Positions 3,385 to 64,000 of a stretch of 64,000 nt of DNA are shown one piece after another. Under the pieces are notes generated by a model. The model worked only from the letters and a program-made list of their open reading frames with translations. It was not told where the DNA came from and made no database searches. This DNA is from Amoebidium appalachense (lineage: Eukaryota; Protista; Ichthyosporea). The position numbers were made by a program, and so were the translations under genes. The stretch lies in the NCBI GenBank assembly GCA_963693365.1, contig CAVNZM010000002.1, forward strand, positions 7,160,454 to 7,224,453. The letters are read 5' to 3'. Each line of letters starts with the position of its first letter. The first letter of the stretch is position 1.

Positions 3385-4071
3385 GGGGGGGAGGGGGGGG
3401 GGGGGGGGGGGGGGGGGGGCTTCGGCCTACGAGCCCATTTTCCGAAAGTTTTTTTGGCGATTCCGAAAAGGCGGTTTGACGTTCCCCGAAAATCGAACCC
3501 TGGTCGGGGAAGTTCGAATTCTTGGTTTGTGAGTACACCAATCGTTGGGCTTCTGCGAATTCTACGGAATTCTAGCCAGATCCAGCCACAGCATGTGTGT
3601 CGGTGTGGCACCTACATTGGAAAAATAACACACTCATATAGGCAGCAAAAGTAAGATAAAATTTGGAAAACTAAATAAAACAGTTTTTGTGTAAAACCTG
3701 TTTTTATTACATGAACATACCGCGAAATGCCTATAGAGTGGATGTATGTAACAGTATGATTGTTGCAACTTGCCGCAGCTCACTTTCAGTGTCGCAGAAG
3801 CTGATTCGCTGCATATATTTCAAACGCCAATCCGCTTTCAAAGATGGCTCACTTTTAGAAACGGAAAATATGATTGGCGTTATGAAAAGCGTGTTCCGAT
3901 TGGGTGATAGGTTCCTCCGGCTAAATATAAATGCTTTCGGTTGTTGGAGCCACTTTCATCAGTTCTTCGAAAAAAACCCGGAAAAAACACGGCGCAGCTT
4001 GCCCAACGATCGGCTTCGGCGCCACTTCAATACAACAAATACTTCACGCGATAGAACAAAATCTTTTCAAA

Positions 4072-5748
4072 ATGTCTTCAGGAGCGTTTGATACGTCTGT
4101 CGACGTTGACTTGGGCAACAAGAAGGGGGTACTCGAGGCCTCAGTTGCCTACTGCGACGTAAAGGGCACCACCGCAGCCGAAACCGCCTGCGATGACCAT
4201 GAGCCGGAGAAGTCGACGTTCTTCATCACCCACAGAGCCAAGATCAACCTCGGTGCCAAAATCACCCTCTTTCTAGCTTTTTCAGCCTACTTTATCGCCG
4301 CATGTGTGCTGGACTTCCAACGAGCCATCCCTCTTGTGGGCATGACAGCGTTTGTTGCTTTTTGCGTTTTGTGGGCGTTTGTCAGCGACAACTACAGTGA
4401 CAGTCTCTATCGTGCCATTGTCAAGCCGACCGTCGCCGTCGTCCAGGCTAACTGGCGCATTCTTCGCTGGGTGTTCCTGGCTGTTCCCGTCATCCTCTTT
4501 ATTCTGTTCATAATTCTCGATGTGCAGGGCGAATGGTACCGCCTCATCTCTCTTGGCGGTGTGTTCATGTTCATCGGCGTGGGTTATTTGTGCTCGTGGA
4601 AGAGAAGCCATGTGAACTGGCGGCCCATCATCTGGGGTATTTGCATCCAGTTCTGCTTTGGCTTCCTTGTGCTGAAGTGGGAGCCCGGATTCAAGGCCCT
4701 CGACTGGCTCTCCGGACACGTGTCCCGCTTCCTTGCGTACTCGGACGAGGGTGCAAAGTTTGTGTTTGGGGACGTGTTTATGGACCACTTCTTTGCCTTC
4801 AAGGTGCTGCCGGTGGTGATCTTCTTTGCGGCATTCATGGGCATCTGCTACTACTTCGGCCTCATGCAGATGGTCATTGCCAAGATCTCGTGGGTCATGC
4901 AGAAGACCCTCGGCACGTCTGCTGCCGAGTCTCTCAATGCTGCCGGCAACATTTTCCTTGGCCAGACCGAGGCGCCCCTCCTGATCAAGCCGTTCCTCAA
5001 GGGCATGACCAAGTCCGAGCTGCATGCCGTCATGACGGGTGGGTTTGGCACCATTGCCGGCAGTGTCATGGCCGCATTCATCGGCTTCGGCATCTCCGCC
5101 AGCTCCCTGATGGCAGCATCCGTGATGGCGGCACCTGCCTGCCTGGCCATGTCCAAGCTGGTCTACCCCGAGACAGAGGAGTCGGAGACGGCCGCCGGCA
5201 GCGACTTCGAGCTGCCCAAGTCGGAGGCCAGCAACGTCATTGAGGCTGCATCTGCCGGTGCCAGCGATGCCATCCCCCTGGTGGCAAATATTGCTGCAGC
5301 TATGATTGCCTTCGTGTCCCTTCTCGCATTTGTCAACAACGTGTTCCAGTTTGTCGGTTGGATGGTGGGCATCGAGGGGTTCACCTTCGAGCTGATGTGC
5401 TCGTACGTGCTGCGCCCTGTGGCCTTCATGATGGGTGTGCCGTGGGCTGACGCCGGCAACGTGGCATCCCTCATGGGTCTCAAGACTTTTGTTAACGAGT
5501 TTGTTGCATACACCCGTCTTTCCGAAATGATTAAGGCCGGTCTGGTGGGCAAGCGTGCCGAGACGATTGCAACGTTTGCGCTGTGCGGGTTTGCCAACTT
5601 CAGCTCCATTGCCGTGCAGCTTGGCGGGCTGGGCGCCATGGCCCCCAACCGTTACAAGGACCTGGCCACGCTGGCCTTCAGCGCAATGCTCACAGGCACC
5701 GCCACCACATGGATGAACGCCTCCATCGCCGGTTTCCTCTTGAGCTAA
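4072..5748 (+). CDS. Na+/H+-coupled concentrative nucleoside transporter (SLC28/CNT family), intronless
   Basis: Long hydrophobic ORF. The track ORF is 3931-5748; the likely ATG is at 4072 (MSSGAFD). It carries CNT motifs FFAFKVLPVVIFF, GTSAAESLNAAGNIFLGQTEAPLLIKPFL, ELHAVMTGGFGTIAGSV, KTFVNEFVAY and TFALCGFANFSS, plus the eukaryote-type N-terminal transmembrane extension. Confidence 0.95.
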   Translation: MSSGAFDTSVDVDLGNKKGVLEASVAYCDVKGTTAAETACDDHEPEKSTFFITHRAKINLGAKITLFLAFSAYFIAACVLDFQRAIPLVGMTAFVAFCVLWAFVSDNYSDSLYRAIVKPTVAVVQANWRILRWVFLAVPVILFILFIILDVQGEWYRLISLGGVFMFIGVGYLCSWKRSHVNWRPIIWGICIQFCFGFLVLKWEPGFKALDWLSGHVSRFLAYSDEGAKFVFGDVFMDHFFAFKVLPVVIFFAAFMGICYYFGLMQMVIAKISWVMQKTLGTSAAESLNAAGNIFLGQTEAPLLIKPFLKGMTKSELHAVMTGGFGTIAGSVMAAFIGFGISASSLMAASVMAAPACLAMSKLVYPETEESETAAGSDFELPKSEASNVIEAASAGASDAIPLVANIAAAMIAFVSLLAFVNNVFQFVGWMVGIEGFTFELMCSYVLRPVAFMMGVPWADAGNVASLMGLKTFVNEFVAYTRLSEMIKAGLVGKRAETIATFALCGFANFSSIAVQLGGLGAMAPNRYKDLATLAFSAMLTGTATTWMNASIAGFLLS

Positions 5749-14320: not shown

Positions 14321-23331
<9,011 letters not shown>

Positions 23332-25409: not shown

Positions 25410-58136
<32,727 letters not shown>

Positions 58137-60694
58137 CTGTGGATGTACGTGTGTGCGTGTTTGGGGCAGGGAGGGGGGGGGGAGGGGGGGGGGGGAGGGG
58201 GGGCGAGGGAAGGGGGAAGCCGGAAGGAGGGGGGAGGGGGAGAGAGGGGGAAGGGGGGAAAGAGGGGAGGGGGGGAGGGGGGGGGGGGGGGGGGGATGGG
58301 GGATGTAAGGATAAAGGTTAGAGTCGGGTGGGTGATGATCGAACGGCTCTTGGTTTAGTGTGAATGTGTTGGTGTGAACGGGGGGAAAGGGCGGGTGGGC
58401 AAATGGCTTGGTGTGGAAGAGGGGGGCTGTGCGGCGCTCGGGGGGAGGGGGGGGGGGGGGGAGGGGAGGGGGCGGGAGGGGGGGGGGGGGGGGGTTGTGA
58501 TGTGACTGGGTGTATGTGGGTGCCTAATCGGTTATGTTTGTAAGGGCCCGCAAGTGCATGTGTCTGTATGGTTGGGTGTGTAGGTGAATGGGGGCATTAG
58601 GGGATGGCGCAGTTCATGTGGAGGGTGCTGTGCAGGTGCTCGTGTTGGTGTCTGTGTGTGTATGTATATTTGCGTAGCCCATGTGATTGCTGGAATGTGT
58701 GCATTAGTGTGCATCTAAGGCGGACAGGAGAGATCGATGTGTGTGTGTGTGTGAAGGGGTTGGGCAAGAGGGCGGGAGTGGTAGGAAGCGGGGGGGGGAG
58801 TGGGTGGGGACGGGGGGGGGGGGGGGGGGGAGGGTTACAGACCGTGTGCCCGAATTTACTGGAGAAAGGGGTGGCATGGGTGTAAAAGAAAGGGTAAGGG
58901 GGTTGGGAGTGAAGCAGGGTTGAGGGAATGGGGGGTTTGGGTGTTGTACATAGGACTCCCTCATCTTCTCCTGTAGGGGCTCTAATGCTCTGATCATTTT
59001 GTGACATTGCTGTCTGCTTTACTTTTATTAAGACCACCAATTTATGTCAGCGTGTTGCAGTGAAGTGTGGGGCAGGCTCGTGCTCGTGTACGCAAGAGAC
59101 AGTCGTGTGGCTGCGGAATCGAAGAAAACCAAATCTTTCACAAGACGCATGCCACAACATCAATGTCATGATGAAAATAGTGAAATCTTCTAACCTAACA
59201 AGACTGATGTATTTGAACTGTACTACTTGGCAGAGTGCACAGGCAGAGGATTGACAAAAAGAAATGCACAGCTCCTGAGGCAGCAAGGGGGGGGGGGGGT
59301 AGCAAGGTGGCAGGGGGAGTGGTTTCCGGCAGAAAGCGAACCTGGGAGGGGATGCTGGAAATCGGAGAAGGGAGAGCCTTTGGGGGAAGGGGGGGGGGGG
59401 GGGGAAGGGGGGAGGGGGGAGGAAAAAGGGGGAGGGGGGGGGGAAGGGGGGCCGGGGGGGGGGGGGGGGGGGGGGGGGGGGTTGGTGACATGGAGGGAGA
59501 AGGAATATATTGGCCATATTGGCCTATATGTTGAGGTTGGAAGGGGAGGGGGGGGGGGGGGGGGGGAGGGGGGAGGTTCGGGAACGCGCCAGAGAGTGTG
59601 CGTTTGGTGAGCTCTACAACGTAAAAATGGTGCAGAAACTGCATAGATCAACTTGGCTTCTGCATGCAGCCACGGAGGCAGAAGCACGGACAGCACAAAC
59701 ATCGGGTGCAGCAACTGCTGGAGCTGCCTTCCCCATCGCAAGGCTGGCAGAAGAAATTACAGACTCATGGATTAAACATCGATGCAAAAAAAAAGGGAGG
59801 TGCCAACGCAAAGAATTCTTACATGGTCAGTTAGCAGAGACACATCTCTCCCTTGTCACCGTCACTCTGCTTTCTCCCTCACTTTCACTGGCGAGGTCAG
59901 AATCTCCGCGGGGAGTGCTTCAACATCTGTTTGTGTGCTTTGATTGTAGTGGCATCAAGATACAGTGTGAATAATAGTGGTGCCAGCTCAGAAAAATTAA
60001 TCCTTTTTCAGTATACGACCGACAACTTGTTGATCTTAGAGCTGTTCATGATATTCTGCCATCTACGGTTACAGTTCAACTTGGGCATGTTTTAGACATG
60101 TATCTTGTACCATTCACCGACTAGATCAAGCACCACCATATGCCTTTGCGCCTTTACAATAGCTTAAAACCTTTCCCCTTATGCTACACAGAAGCCATGT
60201 CCTTTCCATGGCTCGTCACTCTCTCGCCTTCTTTTTAGCCTGTGACTGTTTACAATCTATTCGTCTGTATACAGACTCTAAGCGTAGACCGTTGGACTAA
60301 TGCTTTGCTTGATTTTATCTCTGAAGATGACGTCATAGAAAACCACACAATGGGCATAAAAGGTGTTGCTGGCCTTCGTTGCCAGCCCTGTTTGTGTAAG
60401 GCTCGTGACATGTCCGGTTGATGTTTGGTTGTTGTGGGAGGTAATATTTTCTTTACATGTTTCAAAGTTTGCTACGCACATAGGTTTCCATTTGATTTTT
60501 TTCTAGTTAGTTTCTCACCCCCATTCTTGTTGCGTGTTTGTCAAGTGGCAACTCCGAAATCTGTTCTTTGAAGAACACACCTTCCCTTTTTCAGTACAAA
60601 TTTAGAACGTACACATCATACTTCTAGTGCTTTTTCTAGTTTGACGCCAACGTACACATGCAATTTACCGTCTTGTGCACCGAACTCTGGCAAC

Positions 60695-62452
60695 ATGACA
60701 CAGAACAATTCAAGAATGGGTTATTCTGGCCGTTTTGCCCCTTATTCGACACGAAGCAGGAGTCGGGCAGCTACGAATTCTCAAGCTACCCACGTGGAAG
60801 TAATAGAGCTTTCATCAGATGACGAGGACTCTAGCACAACCACCCAAGACGGGAGACTCAGAAACAGTACACGGCGCGACAGCAACAGCCCACCAACGAG
60901 CGCAAGACATGAAAACGCAACGAGAACTGTTAACGAGCAAGTTCAAACATCAACAGGTAGCCAGTCTTCTGCAGCCCCTACGGTGATAGATTTGACAGGT
61001 GAAGATGAACCCGCACCCACACCCGCACCCACCCAAACATCAGCTACAACACACCCACCGGAGCAACCCAGAAGAACCACTCCGCATCCCAATAGAAAGG
61101 GCACCCGTTTTGGCCACATGGAGGTTCTAAAACACAACAATCACATAGTCAACGCGGCTGCAGTTTACCTGGACGGGGTTAGATTCAAAGGAATAGTCAC
61201 ACATGTTAACAAAATCCAGCAAATGGTCGCCGCTGTGAATAGCCGGACGTGGCACCTTCCGTACGATACCAAGTTTGCCGTTTCGAAACATCAAAAGGCG
61301 AACCGCACGGTTTTTCTCCTTTTCACATCAGTTGAGGACGACGCTTTCCTCGGTATGGCGGAGGTGGTGAAACCCGTGGTGGTTAGCGCCAAGGACGGAA
61401 AAAACAAGGTCCCAGTTGACGTTGAGTTCAGGTTGCTACGGGACCTGAACAGCTCCGAATTTGGTAATGTTCTCTGCGAGCCGCAAACTGGGGTGCACAC
61501 GGCCAAAACGAAACTCGTGCATGCGCCGGAGGCGGCGGAGGTTGACCACAAGGGGCTGCACCAGCTCCTGAAGAGTTGGTGCCAAGCAAAGCGAAGGAAG
61601 TCGAAGGTTTTTAAGGCGCTCCAGCACAAAATAGAAAGACCAAACCCACCCACCGGTTCGGAAACCGCCGCGGCAACATCGTTGCCGGCAACCATCCAGG
61701 CGCAACCGAACACGCGCGAGGGCTCGCCAGCGGCGGCGGCGAACGTCGGCGGTGTGCCCAACCCACACACGTCTCTGCCTCCTCCGGCCCAACAACCGTC
61801 TAACACTCACGCTTCCCCGACTTTCTCTCCTCCTTATCCCACAGCAGCGGAAAACTCGAGCATCAGCACACGTGGTTCAACATCATCGCCGCCGGCGCCC
61901 GCAGCTGGCGCAGCTCTGAGGGGTAGGTTTTGGGGGGCATGGCCCTCCCTCCCAACGTTCTCTGGTTTGTCGTCGTCGACACGTCATTTCTCTACCGCCA
62001 TGACCTTCTCCGCCTCGAGTCTTTCCTTTTGCGCAAACGGGGCCGCTACTGTCTGGTCATCCCTGTCGCTGTGCAGGAAGAAATTAACTTGCACTTCAAG
62101 CACGCGCGCGGACCCAAGAGGATGCTCGCCGACCACGTCTTGCGAATCTTCCACGGGTTCCTCACCATGCGGAACGAGAACGTCTACATCCTCTTCCAGG
62201 AGAAAGCGCACGATGAGGATTACCGGCACGCGCTGCAGCAGATGAAACAGACTCGGCCGGCGGATGCGCGCGTGATTGCGTGTGCGTTGTCATTGAACGC
62301 GCAGTACGAGGGGGAGGGTGTGCTGTGCGACCGATGACAACCTCATGAGGGTGGAGGCTGGAGTTGCCGGTCTGGCTACGGTGTCGTCGAGGGCGATGAG
62401 CGAGCACGGCGATAATTTTGACCTGGCGGTACAGTTTCCGAATTCACATTGA
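60695..62452 (+). CDS. Intronless SIM-SIM / YTH-like / PIN-domain protein (about 585 aa), interrupted by two G-run frameshifts
   Basis: ATG at 60695. SIM-like motifs are VEVIELSSDDED and TVIDLTGEDE. The YTH-like segment (about 61174-61580) contains RF..., TW, VFLLFTS, FLGMAEV, VDVEF..LRDL, EAAEV and LLKSW. The PIN segment (about 61960-62390) contains VVVDTS, LVIPVAVQEEI, ADARVIACA and TDDNLMR. The frame changes fall in G runs at about 61931-61937 and 62310-62315. Stop TGA at 62450-62452. Confidence 0.72.
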
Positions 62453-64000
62453 GTGCATCTGTTTTCTTCATTAGGTTTTTTTTTCCATTTTGGTTTTTTT
62501 TATGTGGGGAGGGGGACTGTTTTTTTTGTTTTTTATTATGTGGGTGTGTTTATGTACTTGTGTGTGTGCGTAGGTGCGCGTGCGTGTGGATGGGAGAGGG
62601 GTGAAGAGAGAGTGTATGGCTGGTGGCGTGTGCAAACACGTGCCCATGCTCTTCCTTAAGCTTGGTGGTAACCTGTCTGTTTCCCACGGTTTTCAATGTG
62701 GCTTCATTTGGCTGTGCTCCGCCGTATTTTGCTCCTATACTTTTTTCTTCTGTCAACAAACGTGCACAATTTTGTGCATGCTCAACGACACACACACACA
62801 CACACGGACACACACACAGTGCACTTGCGTGTGCTCAACAGGCACGCGCTCGTGGTATGGTGCCCACAAGAACACACGAACACACCGGAGTACACAACCC
62901 CACCGGAGCACGAAGCACACATGTTCACACACCACGTGTGTGTGCACGCATTTCTGGACACCTCTCTTCCCTTGCCTTTCTTGCCAAACAGTGCCTGGTT
63001 TAAACACCAGGTTGCCGGTGGCAAAACGAGGTTAAGAGAAGAAAGAGGGGAGCATTCTTTCTTTTTGCCTTTGCATATGGGCACCCGAAAGGGTGGCTCA
63101 TCAAAGGCTGAGAGATGGAGATTGTGGTGTCTGGGATGTGTGTGTGTGTGTGTGTGTGGCGTTTAGAGAGTGGTGGGTGGCATGCGCATGTGCACACGTT
63201 CGTGTTGCATGTGTATGCTGCAGGGGTATGGGTGCATGTGGGTGTGGGTGTCATGTGCTGCCGTGGGTGCATGCTTGGGCACTTACACAAACATATCACA
63301 TCACCACACACAAACACACACACACACATGCCAAACTGGGGCCTACAGAGACAAGCACATGCGCACGCTCGAGCATACGTTTCCATTTTTTTTTTCTTTT
63401 TTTTCGTGCTCCTCTTATGTCTATATGGTCGACTTTTTTTCTTTTTTTTTTCTTGTTTCGTTGTAATTATTGGTTGGTTTGCTGGTTTGTGTTGTTGGTA
63501 CGGATTGTATAAAGTAGGCTGACATGTTCTAAGTGTTGCTACGTTTTTCCTGTCTGGGGCATGGGATAAATTTTTGTATGTGAAATCTAAGGCACGGTCC
63601 AGTTTGAAAGCACACACACAGACACAGACACATACTTGCATGGACCGAGACAGACAGATAGACAGTTTGAGTGAAGGCGGCAAAAAGGTGTAGGGTTTTT
63701 TTTTGTCAGTGTTGTTGTTGTTGGGTGTTGGGGGGGGGGGGGGGGGGGGTGTCGGGGGGGGGATTTGTTACGGTAGGATGAGAGTATGGGGCGCATGTGT
63801 GCCCGGAAGTCTTGTCTTTCGCGGTTTTTCTTTCCAAGTCATTATTCTCGTTTTCTTGGTTCAGTAAGTCTATGATATGAATTTACGTTCGAAACCCCAG
63901 TGGTAATATGAATATGAATGTACTCATGGCCATAGAATGGTATCATCAGAGAAGGATATATCTAGGTGTGTGGGAGATATATGCCAAGTGCTGGGTTGTT

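Follow-up and report, generated by a model that had tools for sequence, protein, structure and literature searches.

One intronless reading frame of Amoebidium appalachense combining a divergent YTH with a PIN_4 nuclease-type domain

The locus described here raises the question whether a single eukaryotic protein can combine a YTH domain with a PIN nuclease domain of its own, and, if so, whether its YTH part still reads m6A. According to the available parts of the literature, eukaryotic YTH proteins recruit decay machinery or are joined to a helicase, zinc-finger, KH, DCD or Tudor domain. A protein uniting YTH and PIN would amount to a decay module in a single chain. The window analysed (the whole stretch of 64,000 nucleotides) holds the candidate gene at 60695..62452 on the plus strand, where three frames of the window, joined with X at the breaks, form one intronless frame of 585 codons, which begins with the ATG at 60695 and closes with a stop whose last base is 62452 (Table 1). 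Such an intronless YTH+PIN protein had been proposed in an initial annotation, the three ORF pieces of which were all recovered; both domains were matched in the joined frame, and each of the five public runs that cover the breaks lacks the two shifts.

Table 1. Coordinates of the YTH-PIN gene, its surroundings and other features, in positions of the window
Feature	Position	Strand	Basis or remark
Single reading frame (SIM, SIM, YTH, linker, PIN)	60695..62452	+	Split over three frames in the window by two assembly errors
SIM-like motif 1 (aa 34-44), hydrophobic core, then Ser and acidic residues	60794..60826	+	Sequence
SIM-like motif 2 (aa 96-105), VIDLT core and acidic tail	60980..61009	+	Sequence
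Divergent YTH domain (aa 156-304)	61160..61606	+	Pfam, ESM Atlas, alignments
Linker, about 110 aa, Pro/Ala/Ser/Thr-rich	61607..61938	+	No Pfam match
Assembly error 1	61938..61939	+	One extra base in public runs (5/5 covering)
PIN_4 domain (aa 416-585), starting at an in-frame ATG	61939..62449	+	Pfam, alignment to P0002
Assembly error 2, in G run	62310	+	Public runs one base shorter (5/5 covering)
Stretch under one joint-free X7 contig	60402..62779	Not given by contigs	Inferred transcript
Gap between YTH-PIN contigs and neighbour contigs	60237..60401	.	Likely shared promoter (inference)
Divergent neighbour gene	60236-59823, then 58136 downward	-	GT..AG intron 59822-58137
Concentrative nucleoside transporter (SLC28/CNT), 605 aa, intronless	3931-5748	+	Three Pfam domains
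Dehydrogenase E1 component exon	About 17400-17630, in ORF 16896-17837	+	PF00676, E 1.8e-17
Weak ZIP zinc transporter match, probably an exon	22708-23331	+	E 1.5e-5, under cut-off

Both frameshifts are assembly errors and the gene is real, because all five public runs covering the two breaks (X1, X4, X6, X7 and X13, from four coded studies) lack them, each with an extra base behind 61938 and a base missing at 62310, at full contig depth. X1 and X4 are possible source runs of the assembly, and X6, X7 and X13 are not marked as such; the break sites lie outside the coverage of X14 and X15, and the lone contig from X16 skips 62310. Two single-base shifts within G runs had been predicted, to be resolved by mapping reads over those runs. 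The second is indeed located in the G run at 62310, whereas the first proved to be a missing A behind 61938, which adjoins the G run 61932-61937 and lies outside it. At the second join, the tail alone matched the homolog P0002 (E 1e-5), and reading through raised the score of PIN_4 (PF13638; cut-off 21.9) from 29.5 bits on the middle ORF (model positions 1-106) to 43.5 bits (E 4.9e-11, positions 1-131 of 132). No run has a joint anywhere across the gene, which led us to reject an intron as the cause of the first break. The X16 contig, whose run is labelled with a different organism, agrees with 62185-62448 at 99% or more and skips 80 bases (62274-62353); splicing was rejected as the cause (GA..TG ends, a single contig, depth 4.7), and the skip is a deletion or a library chimera.

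None of the runs is annotated as RNA. We infer that X6 and X7 are RNA runs, because in both the loose end at 59822 continues at 58136, on the far side of a minus-strand GT..AG intron, and because their depth is nil at 59700-59810 and 60255-60365, where the DNA runs X1 and X4 continue. Besides the X7 contig, the gene lies under two overlapping X6 contigs (60436-62779), and X14 starts at 60405. On the evidence of contigs that give no strand, ends or level, the gene seems to be transcribed without splicing and divergently from its neighbour, a spliced gene of host type. The 5' end of the neighbour and the YTH-PIN contigs are no more than about 170 bases apart, and the gap between them is likely a promoter region common to both divergent genes. 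Since the GC3 of the YTH and PIN domains (0.65-0.78) resembles that of the window's transporter (0.72), the gene does not appear to have been acquired recently.

The 120 best listed matches of the transporter were 46-53% identical to it, and those among them named by organism were all from animals (cnidarians, echinoderms, hemichordates and fish), a uniform distance that suggests a source among the unicellular relatives of animals. The exon at about 17400-17630 presumably resembles that of a branched-chain keto-acid dehydrogenase E1 alpha. Throughout the window, very long G and C runs, dinucleotide repeats and microsatellites give rise to numerous spurious ORFs. Coding DNA is not free of single-base assembly errors either, and other frameshifts of the assembly call for read checks.

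The YTH part (PF04146) was matched by Pfam on 61160-61600 with 24 bits (E 3.6e-5, cut-off 22.1), and with 21.3 bits, just below that cut-off, on a 412-aa piece; the two Pfam families expected for the joined protein, YTH and PIN_4, were thus both obtained. In the ESM Atlas, 30 of 30 matches fell in YTH clusters (best 0.91, 194/256 features), independently of the alignment built here. For that alignment, canonical YTH domains were fetched by a sequence motif, the 117 loci giving 116 motif frames, 73 after filtering, 33 after thinning and 27 used, with six rows dropped in which the N-terminal half was interrupted or unalignable. The domain scored 12.6 bits against the profile of these 27, above all 500 shuffles (best 9.3), at an identity of 11-22% to the individual domains. 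A fold model computed on the canonical-YTH alignment (pLDDT 81.8) matched YTH structures at Z 14.5-17.2 and EVE/ASCH structures at 9.7 or less, a circular comparison; a single-sequence AlphaFold model of the domain (pLDDT 34) matched no fold. The domain ends in a basic patch, KRRKSK, a possible candidate nuclear signal.

Alignment columns could be tied to the aromatic cage of human YTHDF2 through one canonical row (L064, E 3e-81 to YTHDF2). That cage consists of W432, W486 and W491, and changes of W432 and W486 reduce binding (available parts of PMC8964710). W186 of the YTH-PIN protein fell on the first cage Trp in 25/27 trimmed alignments and off the cage column in untrimmed ones (0/4 MAFFT modes); its spacing to the next strand equals that in the DC-like row L028, and it is probably the first cage Trp. 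The second cage Trp, found in 25/27 canonical rows, faces a gap and the third faces an Asn, and the inspected alignments have a shortened loop for cage residues 2 and 3 that is free of aromatic residues. At most one of the three Trps (W186) is therefore placeable, and the residues make up neither a W/W/W nor a W/W/L cage. The K-S and S-R-D motifs, which we take to have a role in RNA binding, are replaced by V-T and A-P-E, respectively; both motifs are kept in 27/27 canonical rows, a count that for S-R-D is biased by the rows having been chosen partly for RD. Retention of the first cage Trp alone had been anticipated in the initial annotation and held; the anticipated loss of the reader pocket stood as regards the two missing Trps, but runs deeper than claimed, with K-S and S-R-D replaced too. 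Because at most one of three cage Trps is kept and the S-R-D motif is lost, reading of m6A by this YTH is unlikely, and with K-S, S-R-D and two cage residues gone, its RNA binding may be absent altogether.

The PIN part retains D429, E462/E463, D524 and D547/D548, with S431 two residues past D429. In P0002 (38% overall identity), D429, S431, E462/E463, D524 and D548 are identical, and D547 is replaced by Asn; the four acidic sites called earlier are thus confirmed as D429, E463, D524 and D548, common to both proteins. The site fits the D, N/S, E, D, D pattern of SMG6 (D1251, N1253, E1282, D1353 and D1392 in the available parts of PMC5499597 and PMC13056571) by motif order, not by structure, and a complete PIN site is no proof of activity, as SMG6 has been reported to need the PIN domain of SMG5 (accessible portion of PMC12923823). 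P0002, a 184-aa PIN_4-like protein, was the sole true match to the middle ORF among 1.84 billion representatives; P0001 (E 8e-20) was rejected as a homolog, its score being the sum of 18 weak repeats in a sturgeon protein. The N-terminus of P0002 is Pro/Ser-rich and linker-like, a YTH gave no match in it, and it may be a fragment, its contig being only 1009 bases long. Pfam found no EST1/TPR or WW domain in any part of the YTH-PIN protein, and the solved PIN of SMG6 in PDB gave no sequence match at E 10. By the tests run, the protein is a member of the YTH and PIN_4 domain families, and neither an ortholog of SMG6 or Swt1 nor one of the m6A-reading YTHDF/YTHDC groups.

Both N-terminal SIM-type motifs proposed earlier are present, and the VIDLT core of the second is that of PIAS1 SIMb (available part of PMC3901395). 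The SIMb pattern appeared in 92 of 100,000 shuffles of the N-terminal 155 aa and has three occurrences in a six-frame translation of the window; a second SIM pattern (two matches in 0 of 100,000 shuffles) was drawn up post hoc and not counted as a test. The sequence has the hydrophobic core and flanking acidic residues of a SIMb, with SUMO binding predicted only.

A wider occurrence of the YTH+PIN architecture, for which a search across eukaryotes and giant viruses had been proposed, did not emerge. No second YTH+PIN protein was found in the YTH-region search (137 candidates, proteins of 226-721 aa), nor, as weak evidence, in the PIN alignment search (7997 candidates, proteins of 323-2000 aa), and the 1.84 billion representatives queried with the middle ORF (PIN) yielded no fusion of the two domains. 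Viral contigs, metagenome contigs and prokaryote genomes held no YTH+PIN either, in pattern scans that reach close relatives only. An exact look-up found 0 of 4 queries, sequence searches of PDB returned only nanobody or antibody noise and left Mmi1 unmatched, NCBIfam and PADLOC gave no matches, and the best match among viral structures (BFVD) had E 5e-3, with none under E 0.001. A PIN was present in 0 of the 22 canonical YTH frames scanned (of 33).

The fusion is also undescribed in the main texts of the literature searched, in agreement with the earlier remark that YTHDF, YTHDC1, YTHDC2, CPSF30L and Mmi1 recruit nucleases in trans and carry none, and the supplementary architecture lists of PMC7641849 and PMC4738411 could hold an entry. 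YTH is nowhere mentioned in the main text of the PIN classification PMC5499597, nor is PIN in PMC4738411, and the available part of PMC12787238 adds nothing further on YTH fusions. In the accessible portion of PMC7641849, YTH is joined with DCD, KH, zinc fingers, Tudor, McrB and PD(D/E)xK nucleases, and PIN with GNAT-EVE. The reader-plus-nuclease design is known, and the pairing of YTH with PIN appears new.

A second isolate, X13, about 1% diverged, covers the gene piecewise (60822-61679 and 61756-62453). All seven in-frame substitutions listed are non-synonymous, and two of them make stops, both in the 5' half, at codon 105 and at codon 200, the latter beside a 2-base deletion in the YTH; three further differences near contig ends lie outside these seven. 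The contigs bearing the stops have a depth of 8-10, versus 3.5 for each of two alternative contigs at 61962-62026, one of which has two inserted bases within the PIN. The X13 stops look homozygous, for contigs that can drop alleles. The 5' half contains 9 differences in 775 bases plus the deletion, compared with 6 in 457 upstream non-coding bases, and the PIN half about one substitution in about 560 covered bases, a weak hint, in small counts, that the PIN part may be more constrained than the 5' half. The proportion of synonymous changes (0/7) is compatible with neutrality (P 0.15) and incompatible with half of all changes being synonymous (P 0.008). The X13 comparison thus gives no sign of purifying selection on the gene, in favour of which only the open frame and the intact motifs of this strain might be cited. 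Because no second fusion was found in the collections searched and X13 carries nonsense changes, the gene is dispensable at least in the sister isolate, and lineage-specific rather than part of a conserved pathway; as it is dispensable there, a stage-specific or conflict role fits better than a housekeeping one.

With about an even chance of being right, we propose that the gene is dispensable and lineage-restricted and that its product is an endonuclease that acts on RNA, probably in the nucleus, and is guided by a YTH blind to methylation. Judging from what is known of these families, the protein would reside in the nucleus, where the SIMs would dock it on SUMO-coated nuclear bodies, the YTH surface would pick RNA without reading m6A, as in Mmi1, and the PIN would cut the selected RNA in a metal-dependent manner. 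One chain would then do what S. pombe Mmi1 achieves by recruiting the nuclear exosome. A further-reaching version, which we put forward tentatively as possible rather than probable, makes this the first natural YTH protein of eukaryotes to bring a nuclease with it. In this view a unicellular relative of animals has a SUMO-targeted read-and-cut RNA endonuclease; its YTH would have exchanged the reading of m6A for some other specificity, and the gene would come and go among isolates in the manner of a conflict gene against viral or mobile-element transcripts.

Several other readings were weighed against these. A once-functional, lineage-specific chimera under relaxed selection, still transcribed and open here although its reader is dead and the gene is being lost, would account for the two stops and the frameshift of X13 at apparently full depth, for 5'-half differences at the upstream non-coding rate (9/775 and 6/457) with none of seven synonymous, for the lost YTH pocket motifs and for the lack of a fused homolog. 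In this strain, nevertheless, 585 codons are open, the PIN site is complete, the SIMb core is perfect and the YTH scores above the Pfam cut-off, and the X13 changes are unpolarised and may all be on the X13 branch, with small counts and piecewise coverage; we regard such a relic as rather unlikely. Another reading, in which the functional protein consists of the PIN only, translated from the in-frame ATG at 61939, and the SIM-YTH half is separate or expendable, seems decidedly improbable. The PIN starts directly past this ATG, P0002 is a PIN-only protein of 184 aa, and the X13 stops all lie upstream of the ATG, with about one change in about 560 bases of the PIN half versus 9/775 in the 5' half (weak, small counts). 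Against this, no stop divides the halves in any of the five runs, the RNA-like contigs begin far upstream (60402-60436), one of the two alternative X13 contigs has two inserted bases inside the PIN, and P0002, with its linker-like N-terminus and short contig, may be a fragment.

A modification-dependent nuclease against foreign or mobile nucleic acid, with a YTH reading m6A RNA or 6mA single-stranded DNA through a remodelled pocket, is likewise improbable. W186 lies on the first cage Trp in 25/27 trimmed alignments, the YTH of human YTHDC1 binds m6A in single-stranded DNA (available parts of PMC8964710), and prokaryotic YTH-McrB, YTH-PD(D/E)xK and PIN-GNAT-EVE fusions are known (accessible portion of PMC7641849); but the loop of cage residues 2 and 3 contains no aromatics and changes of W432 and W486 weaken YTHDF2 binding, W186 is off the cage in the untrimmed alignments (0/4 MAFFT modes), and no PADLOC match and no viral or prokaryotic relative was found. 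The reading in which the fusion is an artefact, this strain having either two distinct ORFs or a pseudogene with frameshifts, could appeal to the two frameshifts in the window's own sequence, but is largely refuted by their absence from 5/5 covering runs (four studies) and by the completion of the PIN model on reading through, and now has a probability close to nil.

If the nuclear endonuclease with a methyl-blind YTH is the correct reading, the protein would be the second YTH after Mmi1 to have been re-aimed away from m6A. With an intact copy in this strain and a lost one in X13, the two isolates form a natural knock-out pair. Fusions of RNA-binding domains with PIN-like nucleases are found in Regnase-1, N4BP1 and MARF1. 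The surprise is limited in that fusions of an RNA binder with a PIN-like nuclease are known in the available literature (PIN-GNAT-EVE), and the YTH-PIN protein so far stands alone.

Among known systems, the YTHDF/YTHDC readers resemble the YTH-PIN protein in the modelled order of strands and helices (best match YTHDC2, Z 17.2, rmsd 2.5, 129 aligned residues), and differ in that cage residues 2 and 3, K-S and S-R-D are replaced in the YTH-PIN protein, which adds a PIN. Mmi1 of S. pombe, whose YTH picks out RNA for decay in the nucleus and does not bind m6A (available parts of PMC4737157), was among the top matches of the model (Z 15.5-15.8), tied with other YTHs in an alignment-biased comparison, but it recruits the exosome and has no nuclease of its own, whereas the YTH-PIN protein carries its PIN. 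SMG6/EST1A and Swt1 share with it a full-length PIN_4, four acidic sites and a Ser two residues past the first Asp (available parts of PMC5499597), and differ by TPR/EST1 or WW domains, which were not seen here. ESB2 of T. brucei, an SMG6-like PIN RNase that is lineage-specific, has a predicted SIM and resides in a SUMO-rich body of the nucleus (accessible portion of PMC13056571), offers an analogy only: the passages on ESB2 mention no YTH, and ESB2 is likely essential, whereas the YTH-PIN gene is broken in X13.

Parallels in design also exist among prokaryotes. A PIN and a PUA-like domain co-occur in PIN_15 and PIN_17 (available parts of PMC5499597). In contrast to the prokaryotic fusions, the YTH-PIN protein appears to have a eukaryotic YTH rather than an EVE/ASCH domain (Z 14.5-17.2 versus at most 9.7, in a biased model), lacks GNAT, places the reader N-terminal to the PIN, carries SIMs and is encoded outside an operon. 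With PIN-GNAT-EVE/PUA, YTH-McrB and YTH-PD(D/E)xK proteins (accessible portions of PMC7641849 and PMC5499597) it has in common a reader of the PUA superfamily and a nuclease in one chain.
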